DNA of 38,564 bases from the IMG/VR virus record IMGVR_UViG_3300032038_000266, positions 1-38,564 of that record; one strand, 5' to 3'. The notes under the pieces were generated by a model. That model had not been told where the DNA came from. It saw only the letters and a list, made by a program, of their open reading frames with translations, and did no database searches. Of the stretch, positions 3,116 to 38,564 are shown piece after piece. This DNA is from a virus. Made by a program: the position numbers and the translations under genes. Positions within the stretch are counted from its first letter, which is position 1. Every line of letters starts with the position of its first letter.

Positions 3116-4033
3116 ATGGCTTATCAAAGCAAAGAAGTGAAAACTTCCAATCTCGCAGAGTTCAATGTGGCTCTGCGCTCGCAGAAGACTCAAGCAATGG
3201 TCTTGACATCTCTTCGCGGCAAGGCGGACGAGTATTTCCGCAACATCGCTTCCGCAGTGGCGAACTCCGCCGATTTGCAGAAGTGTGATCCAGTAACGCT
3301 CATCTGCGGCGGACTCCAGGCTGCGCAGCTCCAGCTTCCTCTCGGAAGCGGACTCGGCTTCGCGTATCTGATTCCCTTCAAGAACACGAAGAAAGGGATC
3401 TACGAAGCGCAGTTCCAGCTCGGCTATAAAGGACTCGTCCAGCTGGCAATCCGTTCCGGACTCTTCGCCGAAATCAACTGCGGCGAAGTGTACGAAGGCG
3501 AACTCTCCGACTTCAATCGCATCGCCGGCACATTCAAGCTGGACGGCAAGAAGGAGAGTGACAAAATCATCGGCTACTTCGCTTACTTCCGTCTGAACAA
3601 CGGAGACACTCCGGAGAAGTGCTTCTCGAAGTCTCTCTATATGTCCGCCGAAGAAGTGGAGAAGCACGCGAAACGCTACTCGCAGACATACTCCAGCCAG
3701 TATGACTCCACGCGCGCCGCATCCAAGTGGACAACGGACTTTGAAGCAATGGCAAAGAAGACCGTCCTCAAGCTCTTACTCTCTCGCTACGCTCCTATGT
3801 CCGTGGAGATCCAGCAAGCTGTCTCTTCAGATCAGGCAATCATCCGCGAAGACGGAGTGCTTGACTATGTGGACAACACAGCTCCGGAAGAGCAAGTCCA
3901 GGAAGAGAGCGCAGACGCTGCCGCCGCAATCCGTGGCGCAGCCGAGAACAAAGTCGCAGCCGCCGTGGAAGCATCTGATGCTGCTGTGGAGAAAGCGGAC
4001 AAAGACACTGGTGAAATCTTTAATCAGCAATAG
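3116..4033 (+). CDS. recT: RecT-family single-strand annealing protein
   Basis: GSGLGFAYLIPF and QFQLGYKGLVQLAIRSG motifs typical of RecT. Paired with a downstream YqaJ exonuclease. Confidence 0.85.
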   Translation: MAYQSKEVKTSNLAEFNVALRSQKTQAMVLTSLRGKADEYFRNIASAVANSADLQKCDPVTLICGGLQAAQLQLPLGSGLGFAYLIPFKNTKKGIYEAQFQLGYKGLVQLAIRSGLFAEINCGEVYEGELSDFNRIAGTFKLDGKKESDKIIGYFAYFRLNNGDTPEKCFSKSLYMSAEEVEKHAKRYSQTYSSQYDSTRAASKWTTDFEAMAKKTVLKLLLSRYAPMSVEIQQAVSSDQAIIREDGVLDYVDNTAPEEQVQEESADAAAAIRGAAENKVAAAVEASDAAVEKADKDTGEIFNQQ

Positions 4034-4035
4034 AT

Positions 4036-4503
4036 ATGGAAATTCTCATCGTAGATCCTATCTCTCTCGTGAATGTTCCGCTCCAGGAGTGGAAGGAGAG
4101 AGAGAATCCGCAGAGCGCGGATCTCATCGTCATCAAGACTGACGAGAAAGAACTTTACATCAGCAAGAACATTCTTCCAGGACGCTTCGACTTCAACGAT
4201 GCGCAGAAGGCAGCAGCCGCGTTCATTCCGGCTCGCTCTCCGAAGCTGGACTTCCGCTGTCCGACTCGCAAAGAGTGCATAGACATCTATGACGCTCGCT
4301 TCGCCGGACTGGATGAAGCAATCGAACTGCTCGGCGGAGAGAAAATCTCCGGTCACTGGTATTGGACTTCCGAAGCCGATCCGGATCCAGAGTACAACAG
4401 CAACAACGCGTTCTTCTTCTACGGCGGCTACGGCAGACTGGGCAGCATCTACAAGTACACCACAAACACTGTGCGTCCGGTCTCCGCTTTTCTGAATCGT
4501 TAA
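4036..4503 (+). CDS. Remote DGR target protein (155 aa, DUF1566/C-type-lectin-fold-like, VR2 at C-terminus)
   Basis: C-terminus ...GHWYWTSEADPDPEYNSNNAFFFYGGYGRLGSIYKYTTNTVRPVSAFLNR. Its last ~100 nt match TR with differences only at TR adenines. FRCPTRKECIDIY resembles the W-x-L-P-T/E-E-L motif of DUF1566. Start is 2 nt after the recT stop. Confidence 0.85.
   Translation: MEILIVDPISLVNVPLQEWKERENPQSADLIVIKTDEKELYISKNILPGRFDFNDAQKAAAAFIPARSPKLDFRCPTRKECIDIYDARFAGLDEAIELLGGEKISGHWYWTSEADPDPEYNSNNAFFFYGGYGRLGSIYKYTTNTVRPVSAFLNR
4390..4489 (+). repeat. DGR variable repeat 2 (VR2)
   Basis: Ungapped alignment to TR 32217..32316 gives 13 mismatches, all at TR adenines. Confidence 0.9.
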
Positions 4504-4514
4504 ACTGATTATCT

Positions 4515-4554
4515 ATTCCGCTCCGTGTTGCTCTACGGAGTCACGGAGCGGATT
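4515..4554 (+). promoter_or_regulatory. Hairpin 25 nt downstream of VR2 (candidate DGR target-recognition element / terminator)
   Basis: Arms attccgctccgtg / cacggagcggatt (13 nt, one internal mismatch), loop ttgctctacggagt. Same flanks and geometry as the hairpin after VR1. Confidence 0.6.
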
Positions 4555-4569
4555 CAAAAGACAAAGACT

Positions 4570-5532
4570 ATGGCAAATATCATCATTAGACCGAAGTCGC
4601 GCGAAGACTGGCTCAAGGAGCGCAGCACGCGCATCGGCGGCAGCGAAATCTCCGCTGTCGTGGGAATGAATCCGTTCGAGAGCGCATATTCATTGTGGCG
4701 CAGAAAGAAAGGACTGGATCCGGCGAAGACTGAGAACTTCGCTATGAAAGCCGGACACTATCTCGAAGACGCAGTGGCGCAGTTCTATCAGGACGCTTCC
4801 GGACGCTCTATCATCAAGCGCAGCGCAATTGACTGGCTGTATGTCAATCGCGAGAAGCCGTTCTTGTCCGGCAGTCCGGATCGCACATTTTGGCTCTCCG
4901 GCAACAAGGCGGACGGCAAAGGCGTACTGGAATGCAAGACAACGCAGAAGCCGATTGACGCAGAGGATCTGCCGCGCCACTGGTTTATCCAGGTGCAGTG
5001 GAATCTCGGACTGGCGGAGATGCCGCTCGGCTCTCTCGCTTGGCTCACTCAGGGCAGAGAGTTCGGCTACAAGGACATCGCGTTCGTTCCGGACTTCTAC
5101 GGCTGGCTCGTGGAAGAAGGGGAGAAGTTCTATCGCGACTGCATCATCGGAGACCGTGAGCCGGAAGCTCGCTGCGTGGCGGACATCCTGACGAAGTTCT
5201 CCAGGAGCGCAGCAGAGACTCGCGCTCTTGAGGAAGTCTTCTCCGGAGAGCCGGACAAAGCCGAGAGCATCGCGCTCGCTTGCTCGGAGTATAAGGAAAT
5301 CAAAGACCAGATCTCCGCGCTGGAAGAGAAGAAAGACGAGCTGGAAGAGCGCATCAAGATGTGCTTCGGAGAAGCTGAAGCAATCTCTTACGGCGGACTG
5401 ACTCTCGCCACTTGGAAGAGTGCGAAAGACTCGGAGAAGTTTGACGCGAAAGCATTCGCGAAGGACAATCCGGATCTCGCGGCTCAGTACACGAAGTCCG
5501 TTTCAGGCTCCAGGCGTTTTCTTGTCAAATAG
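4570..5532 (+). CDS. YqaJ-like viral recombinase-domain exonuclease (lambda Exo-type PD-(D/E)XK)
   Basis: RSTRIGGSEISAVVGMNPFESAYSLWRRKKG and GSPDRTF...LECKTT motifs. ORF track 4525 starts on GTG inside the hairpin. ATG 4570 has the CTATGGCA context. Confidence 0.85.
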   Translation: MANIIIRPKSREDWLKERSTRIGGSEISAVVGMNPFESAYSLWRRKKGLDPAKTENFAMKAGHYLEDAVAQFYQDASGRSIIKRSAIDWLYVNREKPFLSGSPDRTFWLSGNKADGKGVLECKTTQKPIDAEDLPRHWFIQVQWNLGLAEMPLGSLAWLTQGREFGYKDIAFVPDFYGWLVEEGEKFYRDCIIGDREPEARCVADILTKFSRSAAETRALEEVFSGEPDKAESIALACSEYKEIKDQISALEEKKDELEERIKMCFGEAEAISYGGLTLATWKSAKDSEKFDAKAFAKDNPDLAAQYTKSVSGSRRFLVK

Positions 5533-6857: not shown

Positions 6858-7512
6858 CTTTCCGCTGACGCGCCAGCAGACGGAGACGCTGCTGCTCCAG
6901 GCATACAAAGCGCAAGTCGCGGCTCGTGGGATGCAGTTCGTGCTGGACGATTCAGTGCGCTACTACATCAGCGAGTTCTCGGACTGGCTGACGGATCCGA
7001 CTGACAAGTGCTTCATAATGTTCTCCGGCGGATGCGGCTGCGGCAAGACTACTCTCGCGCTGGCGTTCCGAGATATGACGAACGCAATCTGCGACAAGGC
7101 GTACAAAGCTCCGGAGTTTCTCCTGAAGGACAAGCCAGTCGAAGTGCAGCGTCAGTACGCGCAACTCGCTCGCTTTCCGCGCGTGTCTCTGAAGACTGCT
7201 CAAGAGATAAGTGATGCAGCCAGGCGCAGCCGCGAAGACCGGACTGACGAATACTACGCAATCAAGCGCAGCGCGTTTCTCATCATTGACGATCTCGGAT
7301 GCGAGCCAGTGGAAGTGAAGAACTTCGGCACATCCGTCACTCCTATCACGGACATCATCTACGAACGCTACGCGGCAATGAAGCCTACAATCATCACTAC
7401 AAACTTGGACACGCGCCAGATCCGCAGTGAGTACAACGAGCGAGTCGCAGATCGTCTGAACGAAATCTGCCGAGTCATCGGCTACAAGAACGAATCATAT
7501 CGCAAATCATAA
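6781..7512 (+). CDS. DnaC/IstB-like AAA+ ATPase (helicase loader)
   Basis: Walker A FSGGCGCGKTTLA and Walker B FLIIDDLG. Alternative start at 6826. Confidence 0.8.
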   Translation: MELSIEALIAEVTQGMSLTTRTRSFNFPLTRQQTETLLLQAYKAQVAARGMQFVLDDSVRYYISEFSDWLTDPTDKCFIMFSGGCGCGKTTLALAFRDMTNAICDKAYKAPEFLLKDKPVEVQRQYAQLARFPRVSLKTAQEISDAARRSREDRTDEYYAIKRSAFLIIDDLGCEPVEVKNFGTSVTPITDIIYERYAAMKPTIITTNLDTRQIRSEYNERVADRLNEICRVIGYKNESYRKS

Positions 7513-30310: not shown

Positions 30311-31651
30311 ATGGCAAAACAAGTAAACAAGTACGCAACGAAAGCTGCATACACTGCGGACACTAACCGTTCCGCAGCCAAGTCTGCCGTGTCCTATATC
30401 ACGGAAGACAGTGCCGTCAAGTATGACGGCGTGAATGCTGTCGTGGAGAAAGATGCTGCTCAGATCGGCGATCTGGTAGTGTATGACAAGAGCGAAGGAC
30501 GCATCCGCTTTGTCGTGGCGAAGACTCTCGTGAAGAATCAGCTCGGCGCGGAACTCGTTCCGCTTGCAGTCGTGTATGCTCGTCAGGGCAAGCGGCTGCT
30601 CATCGTCTCTCTCTCGAATCAAGGCTCACATCGCTGGGCGCATACTTTTGAAGTATGTCTGCGCGGCATTGATCCGACAACTGCCGGCACGCTGGCAATC
30701 ATCGTTCACAACAACGGCGCACTCTCCGAAGAAGTGGATGTGTCTTGGGGAAATGACAGCACGCTCGCCGCTATCGCCGCTTCTATCTCGGCTCAGTTCC
30801 AGACTCTGACTGACGCTGATGACAAAGCGTGGGTAGCTGCCGTAGACGGCGCGAACATTATTCTCGGACATAACTATTATCTCGTGGACACTGTCACTTC
30901 CGTCTCCGGAACTGGCGGCGGCGCGAATGTCTCCTATGTCGAAGACACTGTGAACTACCAGTGTAGTTATGCCTATCTCGCCGGAACTGAGGATGTCCGC
31001 AGAAACAACTATGTGGACACTTCCTTCGGCGGCGGCAATCTGAAGAAGTTCATTGACTACTACGGCACGAACGGAACGACTCCCACCGGAAACATTCCTC
31101 TCGGAGACAGCACGATTGTCAATCGCGCATCGTTCGAGTCCAGCGCATACTGCGCGGATCTGCGCGCCGCATACTCCACATACGAAGAGTATATGGAGAA
31201 GGAGCAGATGTGCCAGCTTCCGTCCAAGTTCGGAGCGCAGCTGCGTGACGGCAAGGAGACAACAGCCTGGCTCGCCGCTCAGTTCGGCACTGATGTCCGT
31301 GGCATAGACGAGCCGCGCTATCCGGCTGCTTCCGTGGTGAAGAACTACGGCGTGACCGTAGCCGGACACACGACTGGACTGGAGAGCGGACACTGGTGGC
31401 TTCCGTCCGTGACGGAGATGCTGATTCTGATGCGTGACCGCCGCTACAACGGCAGCGATACGGATCCGGATCCGATCAACGACACGCTCGTGAAGATGAG
31501 CGGAGATACTATCTACGGAAACGGATATTATCCGTGGACTTGTGGCGAGTACAACAGCAGCAGCGCGTTCCTCTTCAACGGCTACATCGGCACACTGCGC
31601 ATCCACGACAAGTACGGCGCAGGCACTGTGCGTCCGGTCTCCGCTTTGTAG
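30311..31651 (+). CDS. DGR target protein 1 (446 aa; putative receptor-binding protein with C-terminal DUF1566/C-type-lectin-fold-like domain carrying VR1)
   Basis: GHWWLPSVTEMLILM motif and C-terminus CGEYNSSSAFLFNGYIGTLRIHDKYGAGTVRPVSAL. The last 104 nt match TR apart from A-site changes. Confidence 0.9.
   Translation: MAKQVNKYATKAAYTADTNRSAAKSAVSYITEDSAVKYDGVNAVVEKDAAQIGDLVVYDKSEGRIRFVVAKTLVKNQLGAELVPLAVVYARQGKRLLIVSLSNQGSHRWAHTFEVCLRGIDPTTAGTLAIIVHNNGALSEEVDVSWGNDSTLAAIAASISAQFQTLTDADDKAWVAAVDGANIILGHNYYLVDTVTSVSGTGGGANVSYVEDTVNYQCSYAYLAGTEDVRRNNYVDTSFGGGNLKKFIDYYGTNGTTPTGNIPLGDSTIVNRASFESSAYCADLRAAYSTYEEYMEKEQMCQLPSKFGAQLRDGKETTAWLAAQFGTDVRGIDEPRYPAASVVKNYGVTVAGHTTGLESGHWWLPSVTEMLILMRDRRYNGSDTDPDPINDTLVKMSGDTIYGNGYYPWTCGEYNSSSAFLFNGYIGTLRIHDKYGAGTVRPVSAL
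31543..31646 (+). repeat. DGR variable repeat 1 (VR1)
   Basis: Ungapped alignment to TR 32213..32316 gives 17 mismatches, all at TR adenines. Confidence 0.92.
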
Positions 31652-31670: not shown

Positions 31671-31708
31671 ATTCCGCGCGGCATTGCCGTAGTGCTGCCG
31701 CGCGGATT
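31671..31708 (+). promoter_or_regulatory. Hairpin 24 nt downstream of VR1 (candidate DGR target-recognition element / terminator)
   Basis: Arms attccgcgcggca / tgccgcgcggatt (13 nt, one internal mismatch), loop ttgccgtagtgc, followed by cttt. Confidence 0.6.
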
Positions 31709-31732: not shown

Positions 31733-32152
31733 ATGGCAAAGAATCTCGAAAAGCTGGAAATCTATCACAAGGCGTATCTCTTCTCGATCTACCTGGAGCA
31801 GAAAGTCACGAAGTTCGATAGACGCTATCGTTTCACGCTGGCGGACAAACTCTCGGACGGCATTGACAAGTTCATCTGCGCCGTGCTGGACGCGAATAGA
31901 GAGACGAACAAAGGCAAGGCTGCGCGCATCATCTACTATGCGCTTGGCGAGCTGGACAAGATAGAATACCGGACTCGGAAAGCAGTCGCTCTGAATCAGA
32001 TGTCCGTAGACACAAAGGCAAAATGCGACATTGCACTTGAAGACTTGCGCTCAGACGCAAGACGCTGGCGGAAATACTATCTCCAACTTTGTGGTGCGAG
32101 TGCCGGAGACGCTCCTGAAGAGGATGACTCTCCGGCAGAGAGCCAAGAATAG
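31733..32152 (+). CDS. avd: DGR accessory variability determinant (Avd-like four-helix-bundle protein)
   Basis: 139 aa, helical and basic (KLEIYHKAYLFSIYLEQKVTKFDRRYRFTLADKLSDGIDKF...). Sits in the canonical position between target and TR/RT. Confidence 0.75.
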   Translation: MAKNLEKLEIYHKAYLFSIYLEQKVTKFDRRYRFTLADKLSDGIDKFICAVLDANRETNKGKAARIIYYALGELDKIEYRTRKAVALNQMSVDTKAKCDIALEDLRSDARRWRKYYLQLCGASAGDAPEEDDSPAESQE

Positions 32153-32212: not shown

Positions 32213-32316
32213 TGGCGAGTACAACAGCAACAACGCGTTCATCTTCAACGGCAACAACGGCAAACTGAACAACAACAACAAGTACAACACAAACACTGTG
32301 CGTCCGGTCTCCGATT
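32213..32316 (+). repeat. DGR template repeat (TR)
   Basis: 104 bp with 38 adenines and 12 AAC codons in the VR reading frame (GEYNSNNAFIFNGNNGKLNNNNKYNTNTVRPVSD). It is the donor for VR1 and VR2. Confidence 0.92.
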
Positions 32317-32336
32317 CTCAAAACAAACAGCGTGGA

Positions 32337-33623
32337 GTGGCAAACATCAGTTTCTCTGAGTTCGCGGCTTCAGTGTATGTCGCATATCTTGTGTGTCTGA
32401 AGAACAAAGCCGGCACGATGAACGCTCTGAAGTTTCGCGTGAACGAGAGCGAGAATCTGCTGGAGCTGGCGCGTGATGTCTACAACTGCGAGTATGTGCC
32501 GAAGCCGTCTATCGCGTTCATCATCACTCGTCCGTGCCTGAGAGAAGTCATCGCGGCGGACTTCTCCGATAGAATAATGCAGCATTGGGTAGTGATGCGC
32601 ATAGGGCCGCTCTTTGACCGCTGCAAGACAATTCCGGAGAATATGTACTCTTGTCGCATCGGCAAGAGGAATCTCGCCGCTCTCGTGCATCTGCGCGATG
32701 CAATCTTCCGGAAATCTCGCGGCTATCGCAGCGAGTGCTGGATAGGCAAGTTCGACTTGTCTTCGTTCTTTATGAGCATAGACAAGCGGCGGCTCTATGA
32801 CGATCTTGTGGATCTCGTCCAGCGCGAATATCACGAGCCGGACAAGGACTGGCTTCTCTATGTCATCCGTATCATCACTTTCATAGTCCCTACGGAACAC
32901 GCGATGCGGAAGTCTCCTATCTATGCGTGGAATCCGCTTCCGGCGCAGAAGAGCAGCTACAATCTTGACTGGTTTTTAGGACTGGCTATCGGCAATCTAT
33001 GGAGTCAGACTGACGCGAACTTCTACAACGCTCCAGTCATTGCTTGGATTCTCCAGCACTCGTCCGCAGATGTCGTGAACTATGTGGATGACACGACTCT
33101 CGTGGCGGACAACAAGTCCGACATCCTGAATCTGATGCCGTGGATCCGGAAGGAGTTCCAGGAGCAGCGCGGACTCCAACTGCACAAGAAGAAGTTCTCG
33201 CTCCAGTCGTTCGACAAAGGCGTGAAGTTTCTCGGCGGCGTAGTCAAGTTCAATCGTCTCTACATCAACAATCGCACTGTTGCGAAACTGATGAACAAAG
33301 TCCACTACTACAACACACAGTACGCGGAGACTCATCGCCGCCGCGCTCGCAATGTGGAGAAGTTCGTCACTATCATAAACTCTTACTTCGGTCTGATGCG
33401 CCACTTCGCGACTTACAACATCCGGAAGCGCATCTCTGAAGACATTCTCTCTCGCTGGCGCGGCTATCTCTACTTTGAGCCGAATCTTCAGAAGGCGGTC
33501 ATCATAAGCAAGTATCGCCGCGACAAGCAAGCCGCGTTCCGCGCTCGCCGCCAGCATCGCAAAGACATCTATCAACTAAATCATATCTACTATGCAAACA
33601 CAGCTTTCAATCAATGCGCTTGA
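32337..33623 (+). CDS. DGR reverse transcriptase
   Basis: IGNLWSQ (DGR-type motif 4) and NYVDDTTLV (YxDD). The N-terminal ...AYLVCLKNK...ENLLELARDVYNCEYVPKP aligns with DGR RT N-termini, so the start must precede the first ATG (32418). GTG 32337 is proposed. The ORF track extends to 32031 only because TR lacks stops. Confidence 0.88.
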   Translation: MANISFSEFAASVYVAYLVCLKNKAGTMNALKFRVNESENLLELARDVYNCEYVPKPSIAFIITRPCLREVIAADFSDRIMQHWVVMRIGPLFDRCKTIPENMYSCRIGKRNLAALVHLRDAIFRKSRGYRSECWIGKFDLSSFFMSIDKRRLYDDLVDLVQREYHEPDKDWLLYVIRIITFIVPTEHAMRKSPIYAWNPLPAQKSSYNLDWFLGLAIGNLWSQTDANFYNAPVIAWILQHSSADVVNYVDDTTLVADNKSDILNLMPWIRKEFQEQRGLQLHKKKFSLQSFDKGVKFLGGVVKFNRLYINNRTVAKLMNKVHYYNTQYAETHRRRARNVEKFVTIINSYFGLMRHFATYNIRKRISEDILSRWRGYLYFEPNLQKAVIISKYRRDKQAAFRARRQHRKDIYQLNHIYYANTAFNQCA

Positions 33624-35908: not shown

Positions 35909-36112
35909 TATATTTGCATATCAACTCGGACACTCTTGTGGGAGCTGAAGAAAACAGCGGCTGCTGATCTGATTGCAAGCGGAGATGCAGAAGTGACGGA
36001 ACGGATGCTCAATGGCGATAGACGAAAGTCGCGGAAAGTCAGTCGTGCGCACGGCTGGCTTTCTTGTTAAAAATGCTTATCTTTGTAGCCGGAAACGGCG
36101 GCTCGGAGAGCT

Positions 36113-36127
36113 GCGTATGTCATAAGC
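36113..36127. promoter_or_regulatory. Fifth copy of the 15-bp dyad motif (GCGTATgtcATAAGC)
   Basis: Read directly in the non-coding region upstream of int. A TATCTTTG -7-like box lies at 36078-36085. Confidence 0.4.
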
Positions 36128-36139
36128 AATTCCAGCAAT

Positions 36140-36379
36140 TTTGTTGCTGGTTTGTTGCTCAAAATTTGAAAAGATAGATGCAAAGCACTGATATTTCGCG
36201 ACATACGCGAGTTTTACTAAGAACTGCCACGGAAAGGGGATAGTGTAAAGCCGGAACAACAAGAAACAAATGCAGACAAGCTGGAAGCACGATTCGGTTT
36301 GTCTGCTTTTGTTTGGATATGCGACATTTTTGTTGCATCTTTGTTGCGCTGCTTCCAAAAAAGCAACAAGCGCAACAAA
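36140..36379. repeat. Six copies of TTTGTTGC in phased pairs upstream of int (candidate arm-type/regulatory sites within attP)
   Basis: Direct copies at 36140, 36151, 36329 and 36340 (11-bp spacing within pairs). Inverted copies GCAACAAG at 36363 and GCAACAAA at 36372. An 11-bp inverted repeat tttgttgcgct (36340-36350) / agcgcaacaaa (36369-36379). Confidence 0.5.
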
Positions 36380-36404
36380 CTCCGAACAAAAAGCGTCCGA
36401 CATT

Positions 36405-38251: not shown

Positions 38252-38529
38252 CTCTCTACGGTCTCAAGCGTCATACGGATCGTCTCTTCCAGATCTTTGC
38301 CGTGCAGCATCCGGAACATCTCGAATGTGGATGCAGTGTCTATCGGCATCATTCCGGCGGCTTCCAGTTCCGCGTTCGCGCGTATGATGCGCTCTCGCGC
38401 GCTTTCAATTATTGTCTGCTCATACTGGAGCTGCGCTTCCTCTGCGGCTTTCTCCGCCGCGCTCTTCTTTTGCTTACATCCGACAATCGCGATGCACGCG
38501 ATGACGAGAATTGTCAATGCTCTTTTCAT
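38248..38529 (-). CDS. Small lipoprotein (93 aa) in the lysogeny operon
   Basis: MKRALTILVIACIAIVGC gives a signal peptide with an I-V-G-C lipobox. The start lies 4 nt after the stop of HTH gene 97..444 across the circular junction. ATGA overlap with the next gene. Confidence 0.7.
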   Translation of the reverse strand: MKRALTILVIACIAIVGCKQKKSAAEKAAEEAQLQYEQTIIESARERIIRANAELEAAGMMPIDTASTFEMFRMLHGKDLEETIRMTLETVER

Positions 38530-38564
38530 AGTGCTATGCTTTTGAGAGTGATTCAATGATCGAG
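38438..38564. repeat. Terminal overlap identical to 1..127
   Basis: Exact 127-nt identity with the start of the window. Confidence 0.95.

Follow-up and report, generated by a model that had tools for sequence, protein, structure and literature searches.

The targeting and replacement of variable repeats (VRs) by the cDNA of diversity-generating retroelements (DGRs) is the least understood step of mutagenic retrohoming, and the only target element that has been dissected is the hairpin of phage BPP-1, which carries a GRNA tetraloop. In that system, a 24-bp segment after the VR contains 8-bp inverted repeats that form a hairpin or cruciform in supercoiled DNA and that are required for efficient retrohoming (Guo et al. 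2011, PLoS Genet, PMC3240598). The same study found that the structure of the stem matters and its sequence does not, that extensions of the stem are tolerated better than deletions, and that the GAAA loop needs to keep its size as well as its sequence, with the addition of 2 nt abolishing activity. The position of the hairpin alters efficiency, not the integration site, and 3' cDNA integration occurs within the (GC)14 element. Furthermore, the element acts in the target DNA, its loop requirement is set on the sense strand, the target works in either orientation, and the initiation of mutagenic homing (IMH) sequence together with the hairpin suffices to retarget a heterologous gene. Similar structures follow the VRs of other phage-related DGRs, and Guo et al. 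defined the class by GC-rich stems of 7 to 10 bp, 4-nt GRNA loops, and a position 4 to 34 bp from the VR, pointing out both a resemblance to terminators and a parallel with group IIC intron targeting. Here, we describe two hairpins in a stretch of viral DNA of 38,564 nt (IMG/VR record IMGVR_UViG_3300032038_000266, positions 1 to 38,564; hereafter the window), each of which lies just downstream of one of the two VRs of a DGR and likely marks that repeat as an acceptor of homing.

Our analysis confirms that both hairpins are present, with exactly the sequences and coordinates that had been given in the original prediction for this DNA (Table 1). The site after VR1 reads ATTCCGCGCGGCA-TTGCCGTAGTGC-TGCCGCGCGGATT and the site after VR2 reads ATTCCGCTCCGTG-TTGCTCTACGGAGT-CACGGAGCGGATT. 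A repeat search returned perfect arms of 11 nt in each, with 12 nt between them in hairpin 1 (31673-31683/31696-31706) and 14 nt in hairpin 2 (4517-4527/4542-4552). Both stems also have a T.T mismatch at arm position 2 and an outermost A-T pair, which brings the stem to 13 positions if the mismatch is counted, and G-C pairs account for 9 of the 11 in hairpin 1 and 8 of the 11 in hairpin 2. The features said to be shared by the two sites, namely, the outer ATTCCGC...GCGGATT, the single mismatch, and interiors that open with TTGC (TTGCCGTAGTGC, 12 nt; TTGCTCTACGGAGT, 14 nt), were all found, and the outer stem sequence TATTCCGC...GCGGATTC, identical at 16 of 16 positions, proved to be one base longer per side than first noted. 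Elsewhere, identity between the sites is 54% in the spacer, 46% in the inner part, and approximately 50% in the 3' flank. The predicted interior of hairpin 1 consists of a TT bulge (31684-31685), weak inner GC/GC pairs (31686-31687/31694-31695), and a CGTAGT loop, while that of hairpin 2 consists of a TT bulge (4528-4529), a GCTC/GAGT inner stem (4530-4533/4538-4541), and a TACG loop (4534-4537). Of the six positions in the inner part of the stem, four are unlike in the two hairpins, and every one of these differences is compensated on the other arm, as had been claimed.

The two hairpins are also alike in where they stand. Between the final G of the GC-rich block GTGCGTCCGGTCTCCG and the A that opens ATTCCGC, there are 27 nt after VR1 and 28 nt after VR2; the previously reported 24 and 25 nt are measured from the end of the similarity between VR and template repeat (TR) and thus depend on the VR end chosen, with the spacing being near-equal whichever end is used. 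The stop codons of the target genes lie 19 nt (target gene 1) and 11 nt (target gene 2) ahead of the hairpins. When folded as single-stranded DNA, hairpin 1 reached -16.4 kcal/mol (z -3.6) and hairpin 2 reached -15.8 kcal/mol (z -6.4), and 0 of 200 shuffles were as good. Nothing similar had been noted after the TR, and the 91 nt downstream of it indeed yielded no comparable hairpin (z -0.08) and no match to the covariance model described below. In a scan of the + strand with a sliding 50-nt frame, the hairpin sites ranked second and fourth of 12,838 positions of the frame, with the first and third places being taken by double hairpins, which makes them the two strongest single hairpins of the phage genome. 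The same scan found no comparable hairpin at the 3' end of any of the other approximately 50 phage genes.

The DGR to which these sites belong is real. All 17 differences between TR and VR1 fall at TR adenines, as do 93% of the 14 differences between TR and VR2, and genes for a reverse transcriptase (RT) and for Avd adjoin the TR. The cassette has the order target-VR-avd-TR-RT, as in BPP-1. The locus is like BPP-1 in further respects: between target gene and avd, a GC-rich inverted repeat follows shortly past the end of the VR that carries the IMH; none follows the TR; and the stem is conserved in structure rather than in sequence. Distances from the GC-rich block are close as well, at approximately 25 nt in BPP-1 (approximately 4 nt added to an IMH part of 21 bp) and 27 to 30 nt here. 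Yet, the build of the hairpin differs. In place of an 8-bp stem and a GAAA loop, there are outer stems of 11 bp (8 to 12 bp in the family of relatives described below) that enclose 12 to 14 nt with a bulge, a short inner stem, and a loop of 4 to 6 nt, and both sites of this genome have the same stem base, whereas the stem sequence of BPP-1 is free. Judged by the definition of Guo et al., the hairpins have the position 4 to 34 bp past the VR, the absence after the TR, and the structure-constrained stem, while a 4-nt GRNA loop is absent (the predicted loops being CGTAGT and TACG) and a perfect stem of 11 bp exceeds the range of 7 to 10 bp. They are therefore better regarded as a variant than as the canonical element.

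Other described systems allow similar comparisons. GC-rich inverted repeats follow the IMH in many DGRs, including those with multiple targets, and the hairpins of the window belong to this feature class as recorded by Wu et al. (2018, PMC5758913) and myDGR. The search made by myDGR is limited to stems of 7 to 10 bp with a GRNA tetraloop 4 to 34 bp from the VR (PMC6602519), so that the hairpins of this phage would go unreported; annotation rules based on GRNA under-report the element. The DGR hairpins of nanoarchaea and archaeal viruses carry GRA triloops (Paul et al. 2015, PMC4372165), which provides a precedent for a lineage-specific departure from GRNA, and there too a short motif distinguishes IMH from IMH*. 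However, the archaeal hairpins, with their loops of 3 nt, are located within the target gene, whereas those described here are intergenic, long-stemmed, and bulged. Finally, the arrangement recalls group IIC introns at intrinsic terminator stem-loops, where a retroelement likewise recognizes a GC-rich stem-loop beside its site of insertion or homing. Unlike group IIC targets, most members of the present family lack a U tract; moreover, a DGR is not a mobile intron, and its repeat is replaced rather than inserted into. Neither the tentaclin paper nor a 2026 DGR preprint contained anything on target DNA hairpins.

A search of related DGR phages had been suggested as a check, and it revealed that the hairpin persists while its sequence changes. 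We compared near-identical phages with 38-kb genomes that were found by exact-protein look-ups (L001-L010 and L173-L178) with loci that carry RT homologues at 81% identity (L262), 59% (L011 and L263), 50 to 56% (L015, L016, and L091-L121), or lower. Every lineage with an RT identity of at least 50% (L011, L015, L016, L091, L093, L096, L115, L116, L118, L262, and L263) has a GC-rich hairpin that starts 29 to 31 nt past the boundary between CCG and CTTT and ends 15 to 40 nt ahead of the next start codon, which is that of avd where identified. The stem sequences diverge widely (TCCGCGCGGCA, TCCGCTCCGTG, GCTCCGTG, TCCCCCTCCGTG, CCCGCGCCGCA, GCACAACGTG, and GGCGCGGCGGT), and the build is constant: an outer stem of 8 to 12 bp, a bulge on the 5' side, an inner stem of 2 to 5 bp, and a loop of 4 to 6 nt. 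The bulge has the consensus T-Y-G-Y, and its first base is T in 15 of 15 sequences, an invariant column of alignment A3. The loops (CGTAGT, TACG, TCCA, GTCG, TCCG, GAAC, GTCA, CTTGA, and CTTTGC) do not fit GRNA; only the GGCA of L015 does.

Covariation points to selection on the structure. In alignment A3, 83.6% of outer stem cells are paired versus 66.5% after shuffling, and double changes occur at 8 of the 11 stem pairs. The covariation score is 0.489 versus 0.188 for shuffled alignments, a value reached by 0 of 500 shuffles, with slid partners scoring 0.06 to 0.18. These figures are conservative because four rows (L115, L116, L118, and L172) are out of register; a second MAFFT alignment (A4), in which the register of the 3' arm was lost, was not used. 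Compensation can also be seen among close relatives. Four of them (L002, L008, L175, and L262) read CCGCTCGGCA...TGCCGAGCGG, where a G>T change is matched by C>A, and in the group of L016 a single pair is G-C in L016 itself, G.T in L096 and six other contigs, and A-T in L191. In the hairpin after VR2, a C>T change creates a T.G pair in L174, and a G.T pair of the inner stem has become A-T in L175, which supports the inner stem of hairpin 2. Judging from these alignments, the stem is kept as a structure by compensatory change, both across relatives and within populations.

The sequence next to the GC-rich block is also conserved. The block is followed directly by CTTT in all VRs and by ATTC, ATTT, or AATTT in all TRs, a contrast seen in the window (31644-31647, 4487-4490, and 32314-32317) and in eight other loci (L011, L015, L016, L091, L115, L118, L172, and L263). 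It looks like a conserved discriminator of IMH and IMH* in the clade, including the L172 cassette, which has been swapped (see below). In the wider set of RT relatives, a hairpin of -10 kcal/mol or lower was found within 100 nt downstream of 63% of 108 non-redundant VRs, versus 25% of TRs and 9% of random positions (Mann-Whitney p 6e-31 and 2e-11). Terminal loops that fit GRNA are present in just 8 of 114 strong post-VR hairpins of this set. The textbook form is represented among alphaproteobacterial relatives, for example, by CGTCCCCGC-GAAA-GCGGGGCGA, while Bacteroidales-type relatives have long stems and larger loops that begin with T.

The element is specific to VRs. A covariance model (R1) built from 15 family hairpins scored 52.5 and 44.6 bits on the + strand at the two sites of the window, and 26.1 and 10.5 bits on the - strand. 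It found no third copy in the window and none near the TR, with the next match having 13.1 bits and an E value of 0.05. Over 98 related loci (756 kb), 73 of the 74 matches with E < 0.1 were a post-VR hairpin or its weaker echo on the reverse strand. The single stray (L013, E 0.06) has no VR nearby though its RT is related, and it is probably a chance match. Many copies away from VRs would have spoken against the original prediction, and apart from this weak stray, there were none in the window or the related loci. Because the + strand always scores far above the - strand, the orientation of the hairpin relative to the VR is conserved. Two simpler descriptions of the element were tried and rejected. 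The loose pattern TTCCGC-N18-36-GCGGA has four matches in the window, including two (4076 and 11363) that are not hairpins, and GCGGATTC as a genome-wide motif occurs 11 times versus 2.2 expected but is no outlier under a maximal-order Markov model, so its excess reflects general oligonucleotide or codon bias. Rfam gave no match at gathering thresholds, nor did the phage collection when queried with the cassette by blastn or IMG/VR when scanned for an exact pattern and for a single protein, and exact-protein look-ups of RecT and the 320-aa YqaJ returned none either.

Sibling phages provide a natural contrast between presence and absence of the second acceptor. Four of them (L172, L179, L180, and L181) have an identical 84-aa protein in common and keep the flanking genes in the same order, and in these the recT stop codon is followed after 8 nt by the yqaJ ATG, with target gene 2, VR2, and hairpin 2 jointly absent. 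Thus, hairpin 2 belongs to the VR2 module and not to the recombination operon. The insertion-free siblings also bear on the start of yqaJ, which gene callers place at GTG 4525 inside hairpin 2 (335 aa) in this phage, L171, and L173-L178; since the siblings start at an ATG equivalent to 4570 (320 aa), this is likely the true start. The same four phages carry a different DGR (RT of 410 aa, Avd of 130 aa, and a TR ending in GCCGTGCCGTGCGTG; about 2037-2850 on the reverse complement of L172), which looks like a replacement of the cassette. Its VR is also followed by a hairpin, 38 nt downstream (TGCGGCGGA-TTGTCCGTCAGGCT-TCCGCCGCA), with a long interior that starts with TTG. A second VR in L172 lies at the end of the locus and is cut by the locus boundary.

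Both acceptors are in use. Among the near-identical phages, there are nine distinct VR1 sequences and six distinct VR2 sequences, and where they differ from the TR on their own contig, the TR has an adenine (e.g., 16/16, 14/14, 20/20, and 19/19), with the exception of one VR1 position in L176 and of the VR2 of L174, which has an indel. Because the variation between samples is confined to adenines at both VR1 and VR2, both sites are diversified in nature.

Taken together, these results make it likely that each hairpin is a cis-acting marker of DGR target sites, which, in concert with the GC-rich block and the CTTT discriminator, labels its VR as an acceptor. The original prediction had proposed that the hairpins are the equivalent of the BPP-1 cis element at the two acceptors, and their restriction to VRs, covariation, and coinheritance with VR2, as well as the diversification of both VRs, fit this proposal, from which we infer a role in homing. 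Each of its predictions that is open to a computational check was borne out. An acceptor would have three parts: a VR that ends in a GC-rich block identical to that of the TR; a short discriminator, CTTT in VRs versus ATTC in the TR; and, 27 to 28 nt farther on, an inverted repeat rich in G+C, which would extrude in vivo from DNA that is supercoiled or transiently single-stranded and form a hairpin or cruciform. By analogy with BPP-1, the hairpin may act at the level of DNA and raise the efficiency with which the VR is replaced by adenine-mutagenized cDNA, copied from TR RNA by RT-Avd, and homing may depend on it. Since the TR has no such structure, information would flow one way. The concept itself is unchanged, as a hairpin after the VR is what a DGR specialist would expect.

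Several observations weigh against this interpretation. One of the near-identical phages (L009) has an uncompensated C.A mismatch. On another contig (L101, 980-1140), a second VR has been mutagenized at adenines (12 mismatches, 92% at A) next to only the 5' half of a hairpin, ATTCCCGCGCC, with no 3' arm downstream, though this was seen on one contig only. In addition, BPP-1 needs a 4-nt GRNA loop, and the loops here are different, so the details of recognition must differ if the function is the same. Of 372 DGRs, no more than 34% have high-confidence inverted repeats after their VRs (Wu et al. 2018, PMC5758913), which means that a post-VR hairpin is not universal. Finally, R1 was trained on the same sites that it recovers; its positives are partly by construction, and only its negatives elsewhere are informative. 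The half-hairpin of L101 could, in its own right, serve as a natural test of whether a DGR can dispense with the hairpin.

Alternatively, the hairpins could be Rho-independent terminators or stabilizers of mRNA 3' ends that are associated with VRs only because VRs lie at the 3' ends of genes. The stems are GC rich and stand directly past stop codons, T-rich tails follow those of L115 and L116, hairpin 1 has a borderline tail with five T in eight (TTCTTTCA), and the likeness to terminators was remarked on by Guo et al. (PMC3240598). We nevertheless regard this alternative as unlikely. No T tract is present in TTCAAAAG, the sequence directly past hairpin 2, most relatives lack one as well (e.g., L011, CGCCTTAC; L015, AGGCCTAA; and L016, TTCGCAAG), and a terminator scan called neither site. 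Furthermore, the hairpins end only 15 to 24 nt ahead of the next genes on the same strand, yqaJ and avd. This leaves no room for a promoter, so that these genes must be transcribed through the hairpins, and efficient termination there would shut off avd-TR-RT as well as the remainder of the recombination operon. In siblings that lack the second target, recT and yqaJ are 8 nt apart with no hairpin, the other genes of the phage lack a comparable one, and terminators follow only a minority of VRs (PMC5758913). The earlier suggestion that the hairpins may also act as terminators is therefore poorly supported, and termination is improbable at least after VR2.

Another alternative is that the hairpins function in RNA, as a signal for processing or stability, as a translational regulator of the downstream gene, or as a binding site for RT-Avd in the mRNA, and not as a structure of the target DNA. 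Three of the four one-sided variants (the L096 group, L174, and the inner stem at the reference VR2) are G.T(U) wobbles on the sense strand, with the C.A of L009 being the fourth, and the strong strand asymmetry of the R1 scores could reflect a role in RNA. But a count of three versus one is not significant, and the asymmetry is equally expected of a DNA hairpin with a sequence-specific loop. The BPP-1 element works in target DNA with the target in either orientation (PMC3240598), and because the genes downstream of the two hairpins (avd and yqaJ) are different, gene-specific regulation is unlikely. On balance, we find a role restricted to RNA quite improbable.

It is very unlikely that the stems are a functionless relic of a duplication that created the second target, kept by chance or gene conversion: while the 16 identical outer bases, the similar layout, and VR parts kept alike by homing from a single TR agree with such an origin, the resemblance between the target proteins is limited to the 63 residues around the VR, both stems are perfect with their differences compensated despite divergence, and relatives with RT identities down to approximately 50% have the same structure at the same distance with another sequence. 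The spacer, inner part, and 3' flank have diverged so far that a duplication, if there was one, must be old. Likewise, since the proteins are alike only around the VR and the flanks have diverged, the shared base of the stem does not come from a recent duplication, and it would not be a side effect of homing, which, to judge from BPP-1, overwrites only sequence upstream of the GC-rich block. As a separate candidate, we considered an interrupted repeat, in which the VR side would be the TR side with an inserted spacer and hairpin, so that the DNA immediately 3' of a hairpin would be homologous to that immediately 3' of the GC-rich block of the TR. Local alignments compared with shuffles gave p = 0.02 to 0.06 in the window, but the remaining lineages that were tested, from L262 to L172, gave p > 0.2, and the candidate was rejected. 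The TGGCAAA that is shared is the sequence around the start codons of avd, yqaJ, and probably RT (GTG 32337).

If the hairpins mark acceptors, their build may tell us more about how they are recognized. It is possible, and we offer this tentatively, that this clade of gut phages, probably of Bacteroidales, uses a different target code, in which the T-Y-G-Y bulge of a two-tiered hairpin, with its invariant T, replaces the GRNA tetraloop as the sequence-specific contact, perhaps together with the constant spacing, and to which the stem base TATTCCGC/GCGGATTC contributes in this phage. Under such a code, VR, CTTT, spacer, and hairpin would form a portable targeting module that was planted in the recT-yqaJ operon, where it diversifies a second, unrelated small lectin-like protein. 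If so, the module would be a minimal natural "address label" for retargeting this type of DGR, one that current annotators systematically miss. The window and its relatives represent a well-sampled natural series of hairpins with a build other than that of BPP-1, that is, a long stem, a T-Y-G-Y bulge, no GRNA, and fixed spacing. This series offers two active acceptors in one genome, compensated and uncompensated variants, and a contrast between presence and absence of the VR2 module, so that the rules by which targets are recognized can be put to the test in DGRs of gut Bacteroidales phages.

Table 1. Positions of the DGR cassette, its second target, and other features of the window
Feature	Position	Strand	Remarks
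recT	3116-4033	+	Upstream neighbor of target gene 2
Target gene 2	4036-4503	+	155 aa; weak Lcl_C/C-type-lectin-like match; between recT and yqaJ
VR2	~4390-4492	+	3' end of target gene 2; same GC-rich block as VR1 at 4471-4486, then CTTT
Hairpin 2	4515-4554	+	Downstream of VR2
yqaJ-type exonuclease gene	4570-5532	+	15 nt past hairpin 2
Target gene 1	30311-31651	+	446 aa; VR1 at 3' end; TAG stop at 31649-31651
VR1	31543-31646	+	3' end of target gene 1; GC-rich IMH-like block GTGCGTCCGGTCTCCG at 31628-31643, then CTTT
Hairpin 1	31671-31708	+	Downstream of VR1
avd (accessory variability determinant)	31733-32152	+	phrog_3206 "Avd protein of DGR," E 1.8e-9; start 24 nt past hairpin 1
TR	~32213-32316	+	GC-rich block at 32298-32313, then ATTC (IMH*-like); no hairpin downstream
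DGR RT	32337-33623	+	RVT_1, 2.5e-10; phrog_1423, 8e-64
Inverted repeat I2	36034-36063		Upstream of integrase
Inverted repeat I4	36264-36314		Upstream of integrase
Terminator-like site	36272-36306		Upstream of integrase
Inverted repeat I1	36327-36392		Upstream of integrase

The window begins and ends with a perfect direct repeat of 127 nt (1-127 = 38438-38564), which indicates a complete phage genome, circular or terminally redundant, of approximately 38,437 nt; its G+C content is approximately 53%. The closest chromosomal relatives of the RT are found in metagenome-assembled genomes (MAGs) of Alistipes (L013 and L016), and the host is therefore probably a member of the gut Bacteroidales. Target gene 1 adjoins late-region genes that lie upstream and probably encodes a tail or receptor-binding protein. 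The second target of the DGR is a stand-alone lectin-like protein within a RecT/YqaJ recombination module, an unusual site for a diversified protein. The RT probably starts at GTG 32337 (MANISFSEF...), approximately 20 nt past the TR, with ATG 32418 as the alternative start; the residues that precede this ATG are conserved among RT homologues (consensus FAxFxxSMRxAYRxCLKNK, alignment A2). Gene callers run the RT open reading frame back through the TR, which results in products of 499 to 511 aa.

Some distant DGRs (L047-L062, L067, L076, L082, L087, and L090, among others) have a strong hairpin after the TR, at about +10 (about 3 to 20 nt), for example, TATCGCCCGGC...GCCGGGCGGTA at -13 kcal/mol. 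Many of them were binned to MAGs of Chlorobiaceae, Flavobacteriales, or other Bacteroidota, and the hairpin may be part of the spacer structure of the DGR RNA. Elsewhere in the window, inverted repeats and TTGTTGC-type repeats are clustered at 36030-36400, upstream of the integrase gene, whose product has Arm-DNA-bind_5 and Phage_int_SAM_5 domains; the cluster may be a regulatory region or an attachment site. Last, the window has 26 sites of GGATCC and 7 of CGGATCCG, often at the center of short palindromes (e.g., 1614-1627, 2856-2873, 6985-7006, and 31457-31472). This abundance may reflect codon or oligonucleotide bias, such as a Pro-Asp-Pro run, or a host without a restriction system of that specificity.

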